Below, piece after piece: positions 1,528-51,459 of a DNA stretch of 64,000 nucleotides. The position numbers and the translations under genes are program-made. How positions within the stretch are numbered: the first letter of the stretch is position 1; every line of letters starts with the position of its first letter. The stretch lies in IMG/VR virus record IMGVR_UViG_3300024262_000018, positions 49,960-113,959 of that record, one strand, 5' to 3'. Under the pieces are notes generated by a model. The model did not search any database. It was not told the origin of the DNA and saw nothing but the letters and a program-made list of their open reading frames with translations. The stretch comes from a virus.

Positions 1528-1531
1528 ATAT

Positions 1532-1614
1532 AGAGTGGTAGAATAATTGGTAATTCACTGGACTTTGAATCCAGGTCCGAAAGGATAATGAAGGTTCAAA
1601 TCCTTCCCACTCTA
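1532..1614 (+). tRNA. tRNA-Gln(TTG) with long variable arm
   Basis: AGAGTGG/CCACTCT acceptor, CTGGA-CTTTGAA-TCCAG, variable arm GTCCGAAAGGAT. Confidence 0.85.
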
Positions 1615-1627
1615 TTATAATATTTAT

Positions 1628-1710
1628 AGAGCGATAGAGTAATTGGCAACTCACCGGACTCTGACTCCGGACTCGTAAGGGTATTGAAGGTTCAAATCCT
1701 TCTCGCTCTG
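1628..1710 (+). tRNA. tRNA-Gln(CTG) with long variable arm
   Basis: AGAGCGA/TCGCTCT acceptor, CCGGA-CTCTGAC-TCCGG, variable arm ACTCGTAAGGGT. Confidence 0.85.
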
Positions 1711-1797
1711 TTAAACAAATATTTAGTTTCTTGAAGGAAATAGCGTAAAGAGTTAGTATGTATTATCACGCTACGTTATTTGCTAAGGAATTATAAA

Positions 1798-17552: not shown

Positions 17553-19262
17553 ATGAATGTCTTTGAAGTAAATGTCGGCAAAGTGACTCTAACTAAAAAC
17601 GACTTCGTAAGAAGTGGTGGACAAGCCGATGTCTATGCCAAAAAAGATAAGGCTTATAAAATATATAGTGACAAAAATTATGTTATCCAGCAAGCTAAAA
17701 TACAAGAACTATCTCTGATATCGAATAGTGACATTATTAAACCATTAAATCTCTTATTAGATAAGCAAGATAATCCTGTTGGATACTCTATGAGATTCAT
17801 TGACAAAAATGTGGTTTTGTGTCAACTTTTTACAAAGATATTTAAAAACCAAAACGGAATTACAGCTCAAAATATTTGCAATTTAATAACAGATATTAAA
17901 AATAAAATACAAGAAGTTCATAATAATAAAATACTCATTGTCGATCTAAATGAAATGAATATCTTAGTACAGCAGTGCAATTTCGAAAAATCTTTTTTAA
18001 TTGATGTAGATAGCTATCAAACTCCTAGTTTTTCAGCAACAGCCCTTATGGAGAATATACGAGATAGACACAATAAAAACTTTAGCGAAAATACCGATTG
18101 GTTTTCCTTCGCCATTTTAAGCTGCTATCTATTAGTCGGCATACACCCGTACAAGGGCAAGCACCCAGATTTTGTTGGAAATTCGTCTAACATTCTTGAT
18201 AAACGAATGAAATTGAACGTGTCTATTTTTAATAAAGATACGACTATACCTATAACATGTGCTCCAATTAAAGATATACCCGGCAGTTATAAATCCTGGT
18301 ACATCGATGTTTTTGAAAATGGAAGAAGGTGCCCGCCACCAGAGATAACGCCTGCCACTATTATCGCCATACCGCAATATGCAGGTATAGATATTAATAC
18401 TAATCTCGTTATAACCAAATTGTTTGAATATAATAGCGAGATATTGAAGTATAAGACTATTAACGGGTATAGGTTCTGCGTAAATAAATCTGGCGGCTTT
18501 ATAAATGATAAAAAAGAAAATAATCTAAAATTACTATCTGAAATCGCCATAACCCCGAAATTCAACAGGACTATAATCGCAATTCTTGAAAACGATAAGT
18601 TGAAATTATATGATGCTTTTTTTGGAAAAGAAATTGAAACGGATATCACTGGCCAAACGATATTGTCATATGACGGAAGACTATATATAAAAAATAATGA
18701 AAGTTTATACGAACTAGAGTTTATGGAATTGCCGACAAAAACACTAGCCGCGATGACATTGGTTGGTAATATTTTAGAAAATGCCACGCAGATTTTTGAT
18801 GGGGTTCTTTTTCAAAACCTATTAGAATCCACTTTCTGTTCCATATTCCCGCAAAAACAAAAACATGTACAACTACAGATAAAAGAGCTAAATGGATACT
18901 CCATTATTAATGCTAAATTCGAAAATGATATTTTAATGATAGTCGGGAGAAAAACAAGTTCTCAAAACTCCCAAACAGATAAGTTTATTATACACATAAA
19001 AGATGAGGAGTATACATATAGAAAAATAGAAAATACGCAAGATTCCGATATAAATTTCGCGGTTCTTGATAATGGTATTTGCTCTAATTACGTTGAAGAA
19101 GGCGAAATAGAATTATTCCACAAAAGTGATATAAATGGAGCAATAAGACGAATTAAAGATAATGCGATTAAAGATGTGAGACTGCACAAAAATGGGACAA
19201 AAGTTCTATTTGTGCAGGATAAAAGGGTATATTTGGTAGAAACTCAGAAAAAAGGAAAATAG
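17553..19262 (+). CDS. Ser/Thr protein kinase-like protein
   Basis: GGQADVY, AYKIY, DLNEMNIL, IDVDS, DWFS, HPYKG. Confidence 0.85.
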   Translation: MNVFEVNVGKVTLTKNDFVRSGGQADVYAKKDKAYKIYSDKNYVIQQAKIQELSLISNSDIIKPLNLLLDKQDNPVGYSMRFIDKNVVLCQLFTKIFKNQNGITAQNICNLITDIKNKIQEVHNNKILIVDLNEMNILVQQCNFEKSFLIDVDSYQTPSFSATALMENIRDRHNKNFSENTDWFSFAILSCYLLVGIHPYKGKHPDFVGNSSNILDKRMKLNVSIFNKDTTIPITCAPIKDIPGSYKSWYIDVFENGRRCPPPEITPATIIAIPQYAGIDINTNLVITKLFEYNSEILKYKTINGYRFCVNKSGGFINDKKENNLKLLSEIAITPKFNRTIIAILENDKLKLYDAFFGKEIETDITGQTILSYDGRLYIKNNESLYELEFMELPTKTLAAMTLVGNILENATQIFDGVLFQNLLESTFCSIFPQKQKHVQLQIKELNGYSIINAKFENDILMIVGRKTSSQNSQTDKFIIHIKDEEYTYRKIENTQDSDINFAVLDNGICSNYVEEGEIELFHKSDINGAIRRIKDNAIKDVRLHKNGTKVLFVQDKRVYLVETQKKGK

Positions 19263-19515
19263 ATATCAAATACCCCAGGCTAAAGCGTCGAATTTTTATG
19301 AAGTTCGACACCATTTGAGATTTTATTAGAAAACCCGTATGAAAGTGGCAGAGAAATAGCGTATTTATATTCTTGAAGGGTATCAAGGAGTATAGATTTT
19401 TGTTCTTGAGTGGGAACGAGTTTTAGTTTTCTACTTATTATCGTGTTCATATATTAAATGTTATAGAAGAAATTCCTTTATTTATTTTAGAAAAATTTTA
19501 CAAAAGAAAGGAGCA

Positions 19516-19791
19516 TTGATTCTTATGAAATTCAAAGCAGAAAAACTAATTGGGTCAGTAGCGATATGTAATCTGGGAAGGATCGGTATTATTCAAAAAG
19601 TCAGATGTCTTAATGACGGATACCTTTGGGAAGGTGTGGGAATATATGATAAAAAGAGATGGAGAAGTAAATGCCCTCTCCCTATTGCCTGGTCTATGGA
19701 AGATTACACTAAACATCAAAAAAGTTGGAAAGAACTACGAACTGATATAAAAAGAGAGGCAATTGAAAATGGCAAAAATAACAAAAGATAA
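19516..19791 (+). CDS. hypothetical protein
   Basis: ORF with AAGGAG RBS. Confidence 0.55.
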   Translation: MILMKFKAEKLIGSVAICNLGRIGIIQKVRCLNDGYLWEGVGIYDKKRWRSKCPLPIAWSMEDYTKHQKSWKELRTDIKREAIENGKNNKR

Positions 19792-20512
19792 TAAAGCTGA
19801 ATTAATAGATTTGGAAGACGATAAAACCGTAAGTCCAAAGGCTAAAATTACAACCCATTATCTATTAATCCTTGATAAGAGTTCATCTATGATGGTGGCT
19901 CAAGAAAACACGATTAAAGGGTTCAATGAAAATATCAAAACAATAAAAGAATTAGCAACAAAGCATCCTAATCAAGAATTTTATATTTCTTTGGTTATGT
20001 TTAATCATGAAGTCGAAACTGTTCTTTGGGAACGTCCGCTAACAGATATAAATTATATTGACAACACAGTATATTCTCCTTCCGGCCTGACCGCTCTACA
20101 CGATGCTCTTGGTTCTAGTATGGACAGACTTGAAAAAGAATTAAAAGATGAGTTGGATAAAAATAAAGATTCAAAAATTGTCGTAACCATATTCACTGAT
20201 GGAGCAGAGAACGCTTCTAAGGACTATGCTCATGCCCAGATAGCCGATAAGTCTGAAGTCCTACAAAAAACAGAACAATGGCTTTTTAGCTATATCGGAG
20301 CGAATCATGATGTTGCCTATGTCGCTAAATCATTAAATATCCCATTAAGTAATACAATGAAGTATTCAAGTTCTATGGTCGGGACCGCACAAGCGTTTGA
20401 CAATCAGACAAAAGGACTACACAAATATGTATCTGATCGCTCGCTAGGCATCACGGATAATCATTTGTACACTGAAAAAGAAGATCTATTAGATATCAGT
20501 GATGATGAATAG
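19769..20512 (+). CDS. vWA domain protein
   Basis: LDKSSSM, GLTALHDA, FTDGAENAS. Confidence 0.85.
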   Translation: MAKITKDNKAELIDLEDDKTVSPKAKITTHYLLILDKSSSMMVAQENTIKGFNENIKTIKELATKHPNQEFYISLVMFNHEVETVLWERPLTDINYIDNTVYSPSGLTALHDALGSSMDRLEKELKDELDKNKDSKIVVTIFTDGAENASKDYAHAQIADKSEVLQKTEQWLFSYIGANHDVAYVAKSLNIPLSNTMKYSSSMVGTAQAFDNQTKGLHKYVSDRSLGITDNHLYTEKEDLLDISDDE

Positions 20513-20521
20513 CGGCTAAAA

Positions 20522-20593
20522 GCTCATATCCGCTAACTGGTAAGCGAAAAGACTCTAAATTTTTTAATCGAGGTTCGAGTCCTCGTATGGGCG
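20522..20593 (+). tRNA. amber suppressor tRNA, anticodon CTA
   Basis: GCTCATA/TATGGGC acceptor, CGCT/AGCG D-stem, AAAGA-CTCTAAA-TTTTT anticodon arm, CGAGG-TTCGAGT-CCTCG T-arm. Confidence 0.85.
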
Positions 20594-20600
20594 ATTTCAA

Positions 20601-20627
20601 TAAAGGAATTATAAAAATTTTCGATAA
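20601..20627 (+). promoter_or_regulatory. sigma28-like promoter
   Basis: TAAA-N15-TTCGATAA versus the FliA consensus TAAA-N15-GCCGATAA. Confidence 0.5.
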
Positions 20628-20648
20628 TAGAATAACAAGGAGACAATT

Positions 20649-20978
20649 ATGACTTAGCTTAACAATAACACGCCGTATATTTATATTATCACTCGAAAAG
20701 ACTTAACATTCCCACAGAAGGCTGTACAATCTTCTCATGCCGCAATTGAAGCCGCAAAAGCTTTTTATGACCCATCGGTTATAGATCATCCACATCTGGT
20801 TCTATCTGAACTCCCCTCTGAATTACATTTGCTCAAATTTATTAATAAATTATCTGCGGAGAGCTTGCGCTTTATTATCTGGAGAGAACCAGATCTAAAT
20901 GAGGTCACAGCGATTGCAACAGAACCGATTTTTGGAGCAAAAAGAAAACTTTTTAAGAAACTTCAACTTTTAAAATAA
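20649..20978 (+). CDS. Pth2-like peptidyl-tRNA hydrolase with in-frame TAG at codon 3 (absent from ORF track)
   Basis: AAGGAG RBS, ATG ACT TAG, then open to TAA 20976-20978: YIYIITRKDLTFPQKAVQSSHAAIE...WREPDLNEVTAIATEP...RKLFKKLQLL. Confidence 0.8.
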
Positions 20979-20989
20979 GGAGATTTAAA

Positions 20990-21463
20990 ATGGAAATAAC
21001 ACAACAGTATTATAAAACAAGATTTAACTATTTCGCCCCTTTTGATTTCGAAACTTATAAAAAAATAAAAAAAATTAAAGCTGTGCTTAATATCTCCGGA
21101 ATACAAGCTATTCGCTATGGAAAATGGGCAAGAAAACTGCCCAAGAATAGGAGAACAAAAAAACCGATCTTCTGTGAATTATTCTATATTGCGACATCTT
21201 ATATGGACTATTATATTAATTGGGATGATGAAAAAGGCAAATACGTTGAGACAAATGTTGAAATTGAATTTGCGAAAAAAACCGAATTAAATGCGTTAAT
21301 TGTAGATCTTTGGCAATATGCTACAGCGAAACCACTAGAAACAGATATAGGACCAGAACCAGAATTTATTAAAACAATAGATATAGATCAGATATATGTA
21401 GAATGCAAAGAGTTCTATAGGAGCTTCATAGATCATAACATGCGAGATAATATTGGCTTATGA
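20990..21463 (+). CDS. hypothetical protein
   Basis: AAGGAG RBS directly after the Pth2-like gene. Confidence 0.7.
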   Translation: MEITQQYYKTRFNYFAPFDFETYKKIKKIKAVLNISGIQAIRYGKWARKLPKNRRTKKPIFCELFYIATSYMDYYINWDDEKGKYVETNVEIEFAKKTELNALIVDLWQYATAKPLETDIGPEPEFIKTIDIDQIYVECKEFYRSFIDHNMRDNIGL

Positions 21464-21552
21464 GTATTTTTAACAAACATTAAAGGAAAATGCTCTATTA
21501 CGCGACATTATAGTATAGAAGTTTTTGTCATTTTTACTTATTGGAGTATTCT

Positions 21553-21810
21553 ATGAAACGAGTCGGCAAGAAATGGATAGGACACCCTGTAAAGGTTGAA
21601 ATTCTTGATCACGCCGAAAATGTTGGGAATGTCGTGCCAATAAATGTATATGGAATATTACAAAAAGTCTCCAAAACTCAAATACTAGTTCGTTCTTGGG
21701 ATGCTGGAGAAGAATTGTCTAAAGAGATATCCAATTGCAATACTGACTTTTCTATAGTCCGATCAGCAATAATTCGATTTACCCCGTTAAAACCTTTTTA
21801 TAATAAATAG
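21553..21810 (+). CDS. hypothetical protein
   Basis: GGAG RBS, short ORF. Confidence 0.6.
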   Translation: MKRVGKKWIGHPVKVEILDHAENVGNVVPINVYGILQKVSKTQILVRSWDAGEELSKEISNCNTDFSIVRSAIIRFTPLKPFYNK

Positions 21811-21895
21811 GGATAATATGTCTCTATTCTTTATTTTTAAAAGGACAATATATTTATATTTAGAAAATAAATAATAACTTTTTTGGATTAAAATA

Positions 21896-24800
21896 ATGAG
21901 ATACAAAATATCACAAGCAAATATGAGTATACAAGGACCAGCAGTTGTATCACTAATACAGATAGTACAACAAATGTATGGATTAGGGGCTCCAACGACT
22001 TTTGACGATCAAGGATTCAACAAAACAGACTATGTAAACTCTAATTTTCAGTATATTGCTCGGCTCCCAGTAAGTGATAGAACTCAACTGCCTATACAAC
22101 AAGCTGTTGCGGCTGTTCAGTCTTTAGGGAAATATAAAAAAACACAACTGGCGGGAACGTGGGAACAACTATATGCAGATATACAAAAAGCGATCAATGA
22201 AGCTCAAGGGCAATCGGAAGTTCCAAATACTACTCCTGTAGAGCAGAACAAAGTTTTATATAAAGGAAGAAACCGATGGGGGAATGATAGTTATTACATC
22301 TTCAGTTTAACACCGCAGAAATATAATAGTATGTTGCGTCTTGTCGGGGCAAAGCTAGGAGAGATGGGACAAAACGCATCGAACGCTTGGAAGGCTTTTT
22401 ATAAAGACAAAAAAGGAGGATTAGACCTCTACCAGATAGACCCACGATTTACTGTTTTCCTTAAAGATTTACTTGCAGGCTATGGCTACGATACGTCTGA
22501 AATGTTCATCCGCGATGAAAAAGCTGACGAAATAAAAAAACCTACAGAAGAAGATAGTGAATATAGTAAAGATGACATACAGAAATTTCAAATTAAAAAG
22601 GTAGAATTAGCGAACGGGAAATTAACAGTAATTCTAGGAAGATGGTCAACTCTCTGGAATGAGACTATACGAAATCTAAAAGAAAATTATACTATAGGCT
22701 ATAGTAAGCATGATCATGCCAGGATATTTACAAATCCAGATAAGGTTTTGATAACAACATTAATAAACGCATTAAAAAATGAATTTGACGTAGCCCCGTT
22801 AGAAGCATTATTAGAACAGGTCCCTGATAAAATTGATCAGCCAAAACCGGCTAGCCAAGTTATTATTACAGATAAGGGGATACAGTTAAATGTCGTAAAT
22901 GTTTTGGAGAACACTAAAGGAAAGTGGCATATTGCTATTTCATACTTAAAAAAAGGCACTAAAGAGGGCAAGACTTTATTAGATATTATAAAATTTATTT
23001 GTCCCGCTTTTGGAAAAGACGAAAGTAGATTTTCAGGGGTTATTCCAGACATCTCTAATCCATACGATCCAGCGGATAAAAAAGATCCTGATTATCCCGG
23101 CGATGGTGGCGGATATAACTATGCATATTTGATTAAAGGTGATTATAACCAATATAGACAGTTGAGTATGATATTCAAAAAATATGGATTTGACACCAGG
23201 AATCTTAATAAAATTATAGCAGGCTTAGTTTCCGAAGGTGTAGTAGAAACTACAAGAGTAGAAGGGGATCTGGATGGCTATCAAAAAGAAGTCGGCTTTA
23301 CTGACGCCGCCGGAAACAGAAGGACAACTAAAGTTAATGATCATGATAAGTTTATAAAAGAATTAGATACTTATAATAAAAAAATAGTTAAAGACGGCAA
23401 AGAATTTGATTTTGCTCTTTATCCTCTTCAACGCGAAGGCGTGGCCTTCCTTTACGGTAGAAACTCTGCCCTTTTAGGCGATGCAACCGGCGTGGGAAAA
23501 TGCAAAATTGGAACATCACATGTCCAAACAAATTTAGGAGACTTTGAAATCCAAGACATATGGAATAAATTTGCAAAAAAAATATCTTCCGTAAAAGAAA
23601 ATGAAGAATGGGGAGATCTAAATGTAGATTTATGCGTCCATAGTATTAATAACGACGGGAAGGTTGTTAGAGGAAAAGTAAATAAGTTGTATAGGGAAAG
23701 ATTTAAAGGAAAACTGATTAAATACAAAACAGATAATGGCAAAGAAACAGTTGTAACAAGAGCACACAAATTCTTAACTGAAAACGGATGGAAAAATGAC
23801 CTGTCTGTCGGAGATCGGATTTGTTCATCTTCAAATCAATTTTCTATACATGAGCCAAATAATACAAAAAAAGATCTTGCCTATTTAATTGCCTGGCAAA
23901 TAGCAGAAGGGTGTGAACTTGATAATAAAATACATTCTCAAACGAGCTTAAGTATAAACCAAAAAGATAAAAATATTTTAGAAAATTTATCAAAAATTAT
24001 CAAAAGCCTTAATATAACAAAATACAGATCAATAAAAAAGATAGAACCTAGAATTAAAAAAATAATAAGACATGGAAATCAGATTAATCGTATGGAACTA
24101 ACATCTGTTAATTATAAAAAATATCTTGAAAGTCTAGGATATGCATGGGGGCTAAAATCTAAAGACAGAGTTGTTCCAGAGTTTATTATGAATTCTTCGG
24201 ATGAGGTTGTGAAATATTTCTTACAAGCATTCTTTGACGCTGAAGGATACACTAGTAATCAAGCTAGAGGAATTGCCGTAACCTCAGCTAGTCAAAAACT
24301 CATTTATCAAATTTCATTATTATTACAAAGATTTAACATCTTTTGCACCTATAGAAAAATGATGAAGTGTTCCACAAACGGGACAAAAATAAAACGTCCA
24401 TATTATGAATTAAAAATTGTAGGAAGTGGCATGGATATTTTTATGCGAGAAATAAAATTTTCATATGTTTATAAAACTAAAAAATATAATAAATTTACTG
24501 ACGTAAAATATAACTATAATAAAGAAGGAAAACCCATCTATTTGGCGTTAGAACCGTTTTTTAAAAAATACAAATTGCCACCCAAAATAATAGGGCTTAA
24601 TGACGACGCCTATATTTCCGGAGACAAATGGATGAACGATGATAGTATAGAAAATGTTATTAATAAATTGAAAAAGTTTAGAAATTCTAAAATAATAAAT
24701 GAATATGCCCAATTAAAAAGATCAAAATGGACAAATTCGACAACTGCCGTTTTAGAGCATATAGAAATAAAAGATGTAGAAAACTGTATCCAATCACTAG

Positions 24801-26449
24801 AAAAATTAAAAAATAATGATCTTCAATATGAGAAAATAATTTCCGTAGAAGAGATCTCCCACGATGGATATATTTATGATTTAAGTATCGAAGAAAACCA
24901 CAACTATATTTCTGATAATTTAATTTGCCATAACACAATAGAGACTATCATAGCTGCCGATATGAGAATGAAAAATTCTGGCGGAAGCTGTTTAATAATT
25001 ACGCTTACCGTTGCTCAAGAACAATGGGCTAGTGAGATAGAAAAGTTTGCGAAGCATAACCCCGAAGACATATCTCTCAGTCCAGACGAATTAAAAACAT
25101 GGAATGTTTTAACATATCCTATGTTCCAAACCAAAAGTACTAGAGAAGCAACTGTTAAAAAATTACAAGATTATGTTAGAAGCGGAAAAATTACTTGCCT
25201 AATACTGGACGAATGCCATAGTGTTAAAAACAGTGGAGCATCTAGAACGGAAAATATACAAAATATATCTGACGTTATTGACGTAGATAAAGACAAGGTT
25301 AAATTAGCAGAATATCAAATTCCTTTTGTTTGGGGAGCGAGTGCAACTGTTGTTGCGAATAGGCCCGTTGACGTATATAACCAACTGAAGGCTATAAACC
25401 ATCCATTAGGTAAATTGAGCTTTGCTAATTTTGCCAAAGAGTTCGGAGGAATGAAACCTGGGCGTTATGGCTGGGAAGACACTAGTATAGAGGAACAGAT
25501 AAAAGCCGCGAATAAACTAAAAGAATGGTTGATAAATTTTGGGGTATATATAGCTAGAACCAAAAAAGATATTAGAGAAGATATGCCAGAACTTTATGTC
25601 GATGACGAATTTGCTCAAGTTGACCAGGCCAATTTATACAAGTGTGTAAGTTCAAAAGTCTCTGGATATAAAAAACCAGAATTGCCAATTTCTGTTATGA
25701 TGGCTACAAGAGACTGTTTAGCTCTTGCCAAAACTCCACATTCATTATCACTCGCAGAACCGATATTAAAAAGTGGAAAGAAAATAATGATTTTCACTGC
25801 TTTCAAAGCTGCTGCTAAGTATTTGGAATATGGACTGCAAAGAATACTAGATTCTATAGGAGAAGGGGGCCAAGTAGGAATTATAATAGGAGGGATGCAT
25901 AAAAAGACCAGGTCTGAAAATATAACTAATTTTAAAGATCCAAATAGCGACATAAAAGCTATGGTATTAATGATACAGGCGGGCGGAACGGGCTTAGATT
26001 TTCCAAATGTTGTTGAAGATGTTATAGAAAATGACTTTGATTGGACTCCGGCCTCTAACGAACAGATGAAAGGTAGAGGTTACAGAATAACAAGCAAATT
26101 GCCAGTTAGAATTAAATCTGTTATTGCGGAAGGAACAGAAGATGAAGACTTTAAACAAAGAGTTGATTCGAAAATAGAAGTTGCCGAAATCGTTATGAAA
26201 TTAACAAAAGAGCAATTAGAACTTTTTTCTTTATCAGAATCAGAAAAAACACAAAGTGTAAAAAATAGATTGCAAGATATAGAACAACAACTGATAGAAG
26301 CGGTTAAGCGACAGATTGAGCAAGAAGAAACGGAAGCGGAATTTGAAGAGCATATGGCTACTCAAATTAGAAATAAAATGGGAATGTCGGACAGAAGCAC
26401 TTTTGCTAAAACTAATTGGTATAGGAAAACTTGTTTTGGGAGAAAATAA
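21896..26449 (+). CDS. SNF2-family helicase with intein
   Basis: LYPLQREGV, GDATGVGK|T (motif I split by intein), LILDECH, SAT, GGTGLDF, QMKGRGYR. Confidence 0.88.
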   Translation: MRYKISQANMSIQGPAVVSLIQIVQQMYGLGAPTTFDDQGFNKTDYVNSNFQYIARLPVSDRTQLPIQQAVAAVQSLGKYKKTQLAGTWEQLYADIQKAINEAQGQSEVPNTTPVEQNKVLYKGRNRWGNDSYYIFSLTPQKYNSMLRLVGAKLGEMGQNASNAWKAFYKDKKGGLDLYQIDPRFTVFLKDLLAGYGYDTSEMFIRDEKADEIKKPTEEDSEYSKDDIQKFQIKKVELANGKLTVILGRWSTLWNETIRNLKENYTIGYSKHDHARIFTNPDKVLITTLINALKNEFDVAPLEALLEQVPDKIDQPKPASQVIITDKGIQLNVVNVLENTKGKWHIAISYLKKGTKEGKTLLDIIKFICPAFGKDESRFSGVIPDISNPYDPADKKDPDYPGDGGGYNYAYLIKGDYNQYRQLSMIFKKYGFDTRNLNKIIAGLVSEGVVETTRVEGDLDGYQKEVGFTDAAGNRRTTKVNDHDKFIKELDTYNKKIVKDGKEFDFALYPLQREGVAFLYGRNSALLGDATGVGKCKIGTSHVQTNLGDFEIQDIWNKFAKKISSVKENEEWGDLNVDLCVHSINNDGKVVRGKVNKLYRERFKGKLIKYKTDNGKETVVTRAHKFLTENGWKNDLSVGDRICSSSNQFSIHEPNNTKKDLAYLIAWQIAEGCELDNKIHSQTSLSINQKDKNILENLSKIIKSLNITKYRSIKKIEPRIKKIIRHGNQINRMELTSVNYKKYLESLGYAWGLKSKDRVVPEFIMNSSDEVVKYFLQAFFDAEGYTSNQARGIAVTSASQKLIYQISLLLQRFNIFCTYRKMMKCSTNGTKIKRPYYELKIVGSGMDIFMREIKFSYVYKTKKYNKFTDVKYNYNKEGKPIYLALEPFFKKYKLPPKIIGLNDDAYISGDKWMNDDSIENVINKLKKFRNSKIINEYAQLKRSKWTNSTTAVLEHIEIKDVENCIQSLEKLKNNDLQYEKIISVEEISHDGYIYDLSIEENHNYISDNLICHNTIETIIAADMRMKNSGGSCLIITLTVAQEQWASEIEKFAKHNPEDISLSPDELKTWNVLTYPMFQTKSTREATVKKLQDYVRSGKITCLILDECHSVKNSGASRTENIQNISDVIDVDKDKVKLAEYQIPFVWGASATVVANRPVDVYNQLKAINHPLGKLSFANFAKEFGGMKPGRYGWEDTSIEEQIKAANKLKEWLINFGVYIARTKKDIREDMPELYVDDEFAQVDQANLYKCVSSKVSGYKKPELPISVMMATRDCLALAKTPHSLSLAEPILKSGKKIMIFTAFKAAAKYLEYGLQRILDSIGEGGQVGIIIGGMHKKTRSENITNFKDPNSDIKAMVLMIQAGGTGLDFPNVVEDVIENDFDWTPASNEQMKGRGYRITSKLPVRIKSVIAEGTEDEDFKQRVDSKIEVAEIVMKLTKEQLELFSLSESEKTQSVKNRLQDIEQQLIEAVKRQIEQEETEAEFEEHMATQIRNKMGMSDRSTFAKTNWYRKTCFGRK
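23501..24934 (+). mobile_element. intein with LAGLIDADG endonuclease in helicase Walker A motif
   Basis: Starts CKIGTS, TRAHKF block B, IAWQIAEG and FLQAFFDAEG motifs, ends YDLSIEENHNYISDNLICHN|T. Confidence 0.92.
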
Positions 26450-46286: not shown

Positions 46287-46293
46287 AAAAATT

Positions 46294-46383
46294 GGAGGGT
46301 AGCAGATATGGTATCTAACTAGTTTAGAAGACTGGGCTAGCCTAATGTAAGTTGGGTTAATTGTTCGATTCAATTACTCTCCG
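46294..46383 (+). tRNA. tRNA-Ser(AGA)
   Basis: GGAGGGT/ACTCTCC acceptor, CTAGT-TTAGAAG-ACTGG, long variable arm, G73. Confidence 0.75.
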
Positions 46384-46438
46384 TACGCAAAGTGGTTTTT
46401 TTTCGCGATAATAAAAAAAACAACAACAAGGAATAAAA

Positions 46439-49820: not shown

Positions 49821-50342
49821 TTATAGAGGTAGAACAGAGTATGCGAAAGGAGACATCCTTCTTTGAGTCCCTGTAATCACTTCTATCTGTTTAGGACTGA
49901 TTACTCGAACAACAGTAGCAGGATTTTCAGATTCAGGGTATTTGATTAAAGACACTTTATCTCCTGGCTTTAAATTAGATAAATCATGTATCTGTAAAGT
50001 AGAAGTTTCTATAATTCTTGGTTTTCCTACAGTATCTCCAATGGTTATTAAAGAGAAACGATTGTTTTGTTGATATGGTCCCATATATGCACCAACAAAA
50101 GTTTGATTTGTTTTGGGATCTATAAAAATAACACCATCTCCAGCCTTAAAACTTTGTTGAGGTACATTTTGTTGAGGTACATTTTGTTGAGGTACATTTT
50201 GTTGAGGTGTGCTATTTTTTTGTTGTAGAATTTCTTGAACGTTAACCATACGTTGAGGAGCATCCTGTTGAGGCGCATTTTTTCTTTGTTGTAAAACTTC
50301 TTGAATATTAACCATGCGTTGAGAAAATTTATACCAGTTCAT
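49821..50342 (-). CDS. Gln-rich repeat protein (NWY N-terminus) antisense within the tRNA array
   Basis: MNWYKFSQ, duplicated QRMVNxQExLQQ, 15-nt PQQNV tandem repeats. Confidence 0.7.
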   Translation of the reverse strand: MNWYKFSQRMVNIQEVLQQRKNAPQQDAPQRMVNVQEILQQKNSTPQQNVPQQNVPQQNVPQQSFKAGDGVIFIDPKTNQTFVGAYMGPYQQNNRFSLITIGDTVGKPRIIETSTLQIHDLSNLKPGDKVSLIKYPESENPATVVRVISPKQIEVITGTQRRMSPFAYSVLPL

Positions 50343-51353: not shown

Positions 51354-51360
51354 TTTACAT

Positions 51361-51453
51361 TCCGGGATATGCTAACTGGGAAGCAACTTGACCGTTAATC
51401 AAGTGTAATCGAGTAGAGAATACCGTATCCAGGTTCGAGTCCTGGTCCCGGAG
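51361..51453 (+). tRNA. tRNA-Asn(GTT), C33 and long variable region
   Basis: CTTGA-CCGTTAA-TCAAG plus 25-nt variable region. Confidence 0.8.
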
Positions 51454-51459
51454 TTTCAT

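Follow-up and report, generated by a model that had tools for sequence, protein, structure and literature searches.

How is a gene expressed when the only usable start codon in front of it is followed, two codons on, by an amber stop? This question is raised by a locus in a 64,000-nucleotide (nt) stretch of viral DNA, positions 49,960 to 113,959 of the IMG/VR virus record IMGVR_UViG_3300024262_000018, which is called the window below. At positions 20,522 to 20,978 of the window, a tRNA gene with anticodon CUA stands in front of a gene for a Pth2-like protein, a putative relative of Pth2, which is a peptidyl-tRNA hydrolase. The sole usable start of this gene, an ATG with a Shine-Dalgarno (SD) sequence, leads into TAG at codon 3, and the frame continues in phase beyond it. 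We refer to the ATG with its early stop as the gate. We found that this cassette is a real and conserved recoding device, a form of phage stop-codon recoding, and that the early TAG is a conserved trait of the gene family and not a mutation. The hydrolase is probably expressed only if the phage suppressor tRNA competes with the release factor and reads through the gate.

The tRNA, the gate and the gated protein

The locus is made up of the following features, all on the + strand of the window.

20522..20593, + strand: amber-suppressor tRNA with anticodon CUA, 72 nt, without an encoded CCA (ARAGORN, Rfam RF00005)
20594..20636, + strand: spacer that separates the tRNA from the ribosome-binding site, without a + strand promoter-like or terminator-like site (consensus scan)
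20637..20642, + strand: Shine-Dalgarno sequence AAGGAG, 6 nt ahead of the ATG (sequence)
20649..20657, + strand: gate ATG ACT TAG, with the amber stop at codon 3 and C as the +4 base (next codon CTT) (sequence)
20658..20978, + strand: open frame of the Pth2-like gene, coding for residues 4-109 of P0001, the read-through product, with a TAA stop at 20976-20978
20775..20777, + strand: codon TCG of Ser43, in the loop before the DHPH motif, the site of a second TAG in relatives (DNA alignment, read-through translations)

An earlier note, made from the letters of the window, had drawn attention to this arrangement, and each of its elements could be recovered. The tRNA was called intact by ARAGORN, as the one gene with anticodon CTA among 27 tRNA genes in the window, and the Rfam tRNA model (RF00005) matched positions 20522-20593 in full (54.6 bits, with the cut-off at 29; E 6.8e-11). 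When the tRNA(CUA) was aligned with three tRNAs of close relatives, the CTA anticodon was invariant, and two-sided changes kept the cloverleaf in 7 of the 19 pairs. ARAGORN labels the tRNA "Pyl," a label that it gives to any CTA anticodon; the D and T loops are ordinary, and the general tRNA model fits from end to end. When the nearest neighbors of 50 suppressor tRNAs were sought among about 300 other phage tRNAs, they did not agree on one isotype for the charged amino acid. The sole hint of the inserted residue came from a homolog (L010) that has Q where two others (L004 and L011) carry a second TAG. In the closest relative of the window (L104), the gated gene is directly preceded by two different tRNA(CUA) genes (positions 1288-1442), arranged in tandem with 11 nt between them.

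The coordinates of AAGGAG-N6-ATG ACT TAG CTT were confirmed, with 55 nt between the end of the tRNA and the ATG (20594-20648). Behind the TAG, the open frame runs for 106 codons in phase with the ATG. No ATG, GTG or TTG lies between the TAG and the N-terminal motifs, as the earlier note had said, and the earliest of these codons in frame is a TTG at 20829, 57 codons downstream. In a consensus scan, the nearest + strand promoter-like sites were found at 19763 and 20659, and no + strand terminator was found in 19400-22000. Since no + strand promoter-like or terminator-like site separates the tRNA from the gene, cotranscription is likely, and the two are probably carried on one transcript. A blastn search with this region of the window against the phage collection gave no match.

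The read-through product (P0001), translated with any residue at codon 3, is 109 amino acids (aa) long and, as judged by structure modeling, has the Pth2 fold. The AlphaFold2 (AF2) model, computed with 16 homologs, reached a mean predicted local distance difference test (pLDDT) score of 88.1 and a predicted template modeling (pTM) score of 0.80, with pLDDT values below 50 at residues 1-3 only. Residue 3 is in this disordered N-terminal tail, and the inserted amino acid therefore should not matter. A Foldseek search of the Protein Data Bank (PDB) returned 14 matches with an E value below 0.001, namely, 13 chains of the Pth2 family (TMq 0.57-0.76) and Atu0240, a protein of unknown function; the Pth2-family chains were from MJ0051, AF2095, PH1539, TA0108, S. 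solfataricus Pth2 and human Bit1. The next PDB match was at E 0.34. Pth2 chains of known structure were matched by a profile of the phage family (E 3.6e-8 and 3.4e-6), with which their RxDL, Q..HA and acidic-loop/TA motifs align. Model, structural matches and family profile agree in assigning the product to a Pth2-like family, as the earlier note had done by motif. The search with a hidden Markov model (HMM) that it had suggested gave a divided result: the Pfam PTH2 profile (PF01981) matched P0001 over nearly its whole length (profile positions 4-113 of 115; E 2.5e-4), and the score of 21.7 bits fell just short of the gathering score of 23 bits. The homolog of phage Xoo-sp13 exceeded it with 29.5 bits, and four other homologs (P0004, P0006, P0009 and P0010) are annotated with PF01981 in the database. 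A contig search for PTH2 (PF01981) found nothing at the tool thresholds, and this conflict with hmmscan is one of sensitivity only.

P0001 shares the fold and the RxDL, Q..HA and acidic-loop motifs with archaeal and eukaryotic Pth2 proteins (MJ0051, 2zv3; AF2095, 3erj; S. solfataricus Pth2, 1xty; human Bit1/PTRH2, 1q7s). In the P0001 family, Q27, H30 and RxDL are kept, and the acidic position, the presumed active-site Asp of S. solfataricus Pth2, aligns with the invariant E80/D82. In contrast to these Pth2 proteins, the phage family has an invariant E-P-D in place of the canonical DAG motif. It also has Gln or Glu four residues before the conserved Gln, at a position that we take to be the catalytic Lys of Sulfolobus and archaeal Pth2.

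Several homologs differ in architecture. In one (L027:3001-3540), the Pth2-like domain is fused to about 60 additional C-terminal aa, which are rich in CxxC pairs and zinc-ribbon-like. In homologs of Xanthomonas/Stenotrophomonas phages (L002, L014 and L029), about 180 aa without a Pfam match are added at the N terminus. In another (L034:3250-4100), an insertion of about 840 bp splits the Pth2-like gene between the EPD and TAIA motifs and carries a 244-aa Cys-rich open reading frame (ORF) on the opposite strand; this insertion could represent a mobile element or else an intron that contains a homing endonuclease.

Conservation of the early stop and its match to the suppressor

A gate was defined as an ATG, 0 to 7 sense codons and a stop, with a Pth2-like frame continuing in phase, and duplicates were removed. 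In cultured and assembled phages, a tblastn search found homologs in jumbo phages only, including Serratia BF, Yersinia and Pectobacterium phages; phage XacN1 also has a Pth2-like homolog. Scanning IMG/VR with P0001 as a single protein found nothing. The scan with the family alignment gave 62 loci, to which a second scan added 5 new contigs and a metagenome scan 2 close relatives. Altogether, IMG/VR huge-phage contigs, metagenomes and cultured phages yielded 47 distinct gates of huge or jumbo phages: 45 with TAG, 2 with TGA and none with TAA. They comprise a first set of 43 (41 TAG and 2 TGA) and 4 TAG gates found later. The probability of at least 41 TAG among 43 is 2e-29 at the TAG share of the window's contig (0.17) and is still 1e-10 at a share of 0.5. 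The second scan was aimed at more TGA gates and gave TAG gates only.

Within the first 43 gates, an SD-like motif was found no more than 20 nt upstream of the ATG of the mini-ORF in 31. The +4 base was a purine in 42 of the 43 (22 with G and 20 with A); the remaining gate has C, and T did not occur. A purine at +4 boosts amber suppression, and for supE a change from C to A gives an effect of up to 10-fold (PMC6266110). The gate reads ATG ACT TAG in Acinetobacter phage ME3, ATG GCA CAA TAG in Cronobacter phage GAP32, ATG ACG CAC TAG in Erwinia phage pEa_SNUABM_19, ATG TTG TAG in Ralstonia phage RsoM2USA and ATG ACT CAC TAG in a 595-kb record (LR756511.1). The Xoo-sp13 homolog has ATG AAG AAG TAG, followed four codons later by an ordinary ATG.

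The Pth2-like frame is under purifying selection. Two metagenome relatives (L104 and L105, 85-86% protein identity) retain ATG ACT TAG unchanged; between their gene and that of the window, the synonymous divergence (dS) is 0.57-0.94, and the ratio of nonsynonymous to synonymous divergence (dN/dS) is 0.06-0.09. The residues right after the stop are conserved in close relatives as L/V/I, N/D/E, N/D, N and T. The earlier note had named a sense codon in homologs as the sign of a recent mutation or a sequencing error; with 47 distinct gates at hand, this comparison favored its claim.

A second in-frame TAG was found in the loop before DHPH, in close relatives and in at least two other clades, thus in at least three clades. 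Two gates in one gene would make the output scale with the square of the suppression efficiency, which fits a gene under suppressor control.

The type of stop was then compared with the anticodons of the suppressor tRNAs. At about 30 TAG-gated loci, a tRNA(CUA) was present within 3 kb, on the same strand in every case and often 100-650 nt upstream. Both TGA gates have an upstream tRNA(UCA), at 330 nt (L009) and at 97 nt (L030). There was no case of a gate paired solely with the wrong suppressor. Stop and anticodon thus change together, and the adjacent suppressor that the earlier note had proposed to look for in homologs was found. Six large genomes without a flanking suppressor were searched whole, and all six had a UAG-reading suppressor elsewhere. 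The distance from the gene was 8 kb in LR756511.1, 3.3 kb in pEa_SNUABM_19, 7.7 kb in G002 and 13 kb in RsoM2USA; the suppressor of G003 is a 93-nt tRNA(CUA), and that of G001, a 527-kb phage (locus L092, G001:167265-167425), is an ochre-type tRNA(UUA) beside a doubtful 86-nt tRNA(CUA) call. A CTA or "Sup" tRNA is already annotated in the records of ME3 (0.5 kb from the gene) and GAP32 (3.1 kb). Among the ungated homologs, those of RaK2 (8 tRNAs) and G005 are in genomes without a suppressor, and three others (L019, L059 and L032) are in genomes that still carry a tRNA(CUA). All gated genomes that were checked carry a suppressor that can decode their stop. A gate implies a suppressor, and a suppressor does not imply a gate. 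Since the type of stop goes with the anticodon, it is the tRNA, and not release factor 1 (RF1) specifically, that the design centers on. One phage (L016) carries both CUA and UCA suppressors.

The early stop in front of the gene explains why annotation pipelines miss or truncate the family. Several phage records leave the Pth2-like gene unannotated, as in Serratia BF and Yersinia, or have it truncated or started internally. A profile search of 1.84 billion cluster representatives returned 1,924 proteins at E values of 1e-10 or lower. Among the top 149 family representatives, 61 were called from inside strand 1 and 32 begin with M-x(0-5)-Q. The N-terminal Q residues are taken to be translations of the gate under code 15 (TAG = Gln) and not sense codons, which was checked for one protein: by eye, P0003 resembles the L104 product translated with TAG = Gln at both TAG positions.

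A second gated family was noticed in two related phages (L012:4230-4640 and L065:3959-4357). Its proteins have about 131-134 aa and no Pfam match, and the genes open with ATG (TCG) TAG. The order in both phages is the Pth2-like gene, tRNA(CUA) and, directly downstream, the second gated gene. No homolog of this family was found in the window's contig.

Upstream of the tRNA(CUA), window positions 17553-20512 encode a protein with a weak match to kinases (Pkinase, E 7e-4, below the cut-off) and a von Willebrand factor A (VWA) domain protein (E 8e-6). Further downstream, a 1517-aa ORF (21896-26449) looks helicase- or ATPase-like by eye from its translation, which is broken by a segment whose ends are intein-like and which has LAGLIDADG-like motifs (also by eye). 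Unusual tRNA calls at window positions 1531-1711, 46293-46384 and 51360-51454 comprise two 85-nt tRNA-Gln genes, a 95-nt tRNA-Asn and a tRNA-Ser(AGA); they may be intron-containing or miscalled.

Reading of the stop and competing explanations

In the mechanism that we propose, ribosomes starting at the ATG would either terminate with a dipeptide or take the phage tRNA at UAG and continue to the 109-residue protein. The amount of hydrolase would then report on the expression, maturation and charging of the suppressor and on how well it can outcompete the release factor. The adjacent suppressor is the natural reader of the stop, and the output must therefore depend on the competition between tRNA and release factor at codon 3.

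Several observations weigh against this mechanism. Charging of the tRNA and production of the full-length protein are predictions made here from sequence. The window gate has C at +4, the lone pyrimidine among the first 43 gates (L104 has G and L105 has A), which is a poor suppression context and may give weaker read-through here. The covariation of stop and anticodon comes from two TGA cases only. G001 is gated, and its clear suppressor has anticodon UUA, the CUA call being doubtful; wobble rules allow a UUA anticodon to read UAG as well as UAA. Ungated homologs in genomes with a tRNA(CUA) indicate that the link between tRNA and enzyme does not always need a gate. Finally, the Gln or Glu at the presumed catalytic Lys suggests that the substrate may differ from that of classic Pth2.

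The alternatives depend in part on the genetic code of the phage. The record holding the window is 113,959 bp long, with a GC content of 35%, and is 26% complete according to CheckV; it therefore represents part of a phage genome several hundred kb in size. Under translation table 11, 120 non-overlapping ORFs of at least 80 aa occupy 90% of this 114-kb contig, and they end with TAA (81), TAG (20) or TGA (19). The genome thus uses the standard code and is not recoded, and TAG is otherwise a normal stop, as the earlier note had observed in the window. Back-up stops were not enriched behind the TAG-terminated genes of the contig, with a median extension of 7.5 codons versus 7 and 5 (p = 0.79). 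A scan of the whole contig for an SD and an ATG followed by 0 to 7 codons, a stop and a long open frame gave the Pth2-like gene and one weak candidate only. This candidate (ATG at 21490, seven codons, TAG) was rejected because the downstream gene has its own GGAG and an ATG at 21553.

A code reassigned throughout the phage (TAG = Gln), with the Pth2-like gene as one of many recoded genes, would be in line with the tRNA(CUA) that the phage encodes and with the Q shown at the gate in database translations of relatives. However, of the marks of a genome-wide reassignment, the suppressor tRNA was present, and many in-frame stops and a low table-11 density were not found in this fragment (26% complete); the density is high, TAG ends a sixth of the ORFs, and the gated gene is the lone one in the contig. 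We regard such a reassignment as highly improbable. Ordinarily, a gene would be inactivated by a stop at its third codon, and the locus could reflect a recent nonsense mutation, a pseudogene or an assembly error. This is hardly credible here in view of the 47 distinct gates, the low dN/dS past the stop and the identity of ATG ACT TAG in two independent metagenome contigs. The mini-ORF could also be an ordinary upstream ORF, with the hydrolase made by reinitiation or from an ATT or ATC start past the stop and with the tRNA irrelevant. Indeed, ATT and ATC are found in frame 8-11 codons past the TAG, and five homologs (L002, L014, L029, L016 and L018) have a canonical start past the stop. Yet any stop could close an upstream ORF, and TAA is found in 0 of the 47 gates, although it ends 68% of the contig ORFs, and the type of stop matches the tRNA anticodon. 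Moreover, the SD is spaced for the ATG and not for a downstream codon, close relatives conserve the residues behind the stop at the protein level, and a start at ATT or ATC would remove part of strand 1. An upstream ORF of this kind is therefore very unlikely.

The early stop could instead be a release-factor sensor, in which the activity of the host RF1 is sensed, failing termination leads to read-through, and the hydrolase comes to the rescue, while the tRNA sets the gain only. Read-through of a stop is inherently a competition between tRNA and release factor, an early stop is also found in prfB, and a hydrolase is a plausible response to failed termination. TAG is read by RF1 only. The tRNA(UCA) goes with a TGA gate, which is read by release factor 2 (RF2), and what is tracked is thus the tRNA rather than RF1. 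In addition, there is no frameshift site, the frame being in phase (ACT TAG C gives no +1 re-pairing), and no gene with an RF-1 domain (PF00472) was found at the tool thresholds in the 114-kb fragment (26% complete). The sensor model is compatible with our explanation and does not exclude it; as the account of this locus, we consider it unlikely. The earlier note had proposed a switch set by RF1 and the suppressor tRNA: the competition at codon 3 stands, and RF1 as the quantity sensed is not supported, given the TGA gates with UCA suppressors. Its analogy with prfB was borne out in part only, as the frame continues in phase without a frameshift and the stop follows the anticodon of the tRNA.

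If the hydrolase depends on the suppressor tRNA as we propose, what would the coupling be for? We tentatively prefer a feed-forward purpose, in which the yield of hydrolase would be proportional to suppressor activity and the enzyme would clear the peptidyl-tRNA or stalled complexes that arise from read-through of ordinary stops. This resembles the part in ribosome rescue that has been suggested for phage PTH2 (PMC7824862). Feedback on the suppressor, which would be self-limiting, is a possibility that we rate lower, and a timing device or another purpose takes the remaining weight. It is rather doubtful that the loop is closed and homeostatic, that is, that the Pth2-like protein, itself made only by way of suppressor read-through, hydrolyzes the charged or peptidyl suppressor tRNA and read-through limits itself at a set point. 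If it were, prfB autoregulation would have a counterpart based on a tRNA, and a phage of standard code could retain a suppressor while its own genes that end in TAG were spared.

Relation to known systems and significance

Genome-wide recoding, with TAG = Gln (code 15) or TGA = Trp (code 4), is known from crAss-like, Lak and other gut phages (10.1101/2021.08.26.457843; PMC9523058). As in the cassette, a phage tRNA there reads an in-frame stop within a standard-code host, and a posttranscriptional switch has been proposed. In those phages, however, in-frame stops are found in many, mostly late genes, and the table-11 density is low, whereas here the genome is of standard code and one small gene is gated at codons 2-8 (with two TAGs in relatives). 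The tRNA here usually adjoins its target, which is a translation-related enzyme. The recoding preprint covers genome-wide recoding and not a single-gene gate (10.1101/2021.08.26.457843).

The gene for RF2, prfB, is similar in that the decoding efficiency of an early in-frame stop, UGA in that case, sets the yield of a translation factor. It differs in using a +1 frameshift with an internal SD and in sensing its own product, whereas the cassette has an in-phase frame, a dedicated tRNA that would read the stop and a type of stop that follows this tRNA. In programmed read-through, as in Q-beta A1 and retroviral gag-pol, a fixed share of the ribosomes likewise decodes a stop as sense; there, a C-terminal extension is made by host near-cognate tRNAs, whereas here an N-terminal stop would gate the whole protein and the cognate tRNA is encoded by the virus.

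PTH2 has been noted in jumbo phages by Iyer et al. (2021), without mention of an early stop or a link to a suppressor tRNA (PMC7824862). Full-text literature searches turned up no paper in which a phage suppressor tRNA is connected with an early stop and a PTH2-like gene. Suppressor tRNAs themselves have been reported from standard-code phages: XacN1, Summit and Atu_ph07 have an orphan tRNA(CUA) or tRNA(UCA). For XacN1, read-through of 18 amber stops revealed no target gene (PMC5852040); the Summit announcement stated that the target of the suppressor tRNA could not be identified (PMC9022506); and for Atu_ph07 no specific target was named, many UGA stops in phage and host being potential targets (PMC6102473).

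The cassette supplies a target for the suppressor tRNAs of standard-code phages, namely, a conserved gene for a translation-related enzyme that would depend on the suppressor. The dependence is directly testable, as cultured Acinetobacter, Cronobacter, Erwinia and Ralstonia phages carry the cassette, and the natural pair of tRNA and gate may serve as an orthogonal expression switch. For phage biology, the cassette represents a minimal, single-gene case of stop-codon recoding that may precede genome-wide recoding or remain after it.
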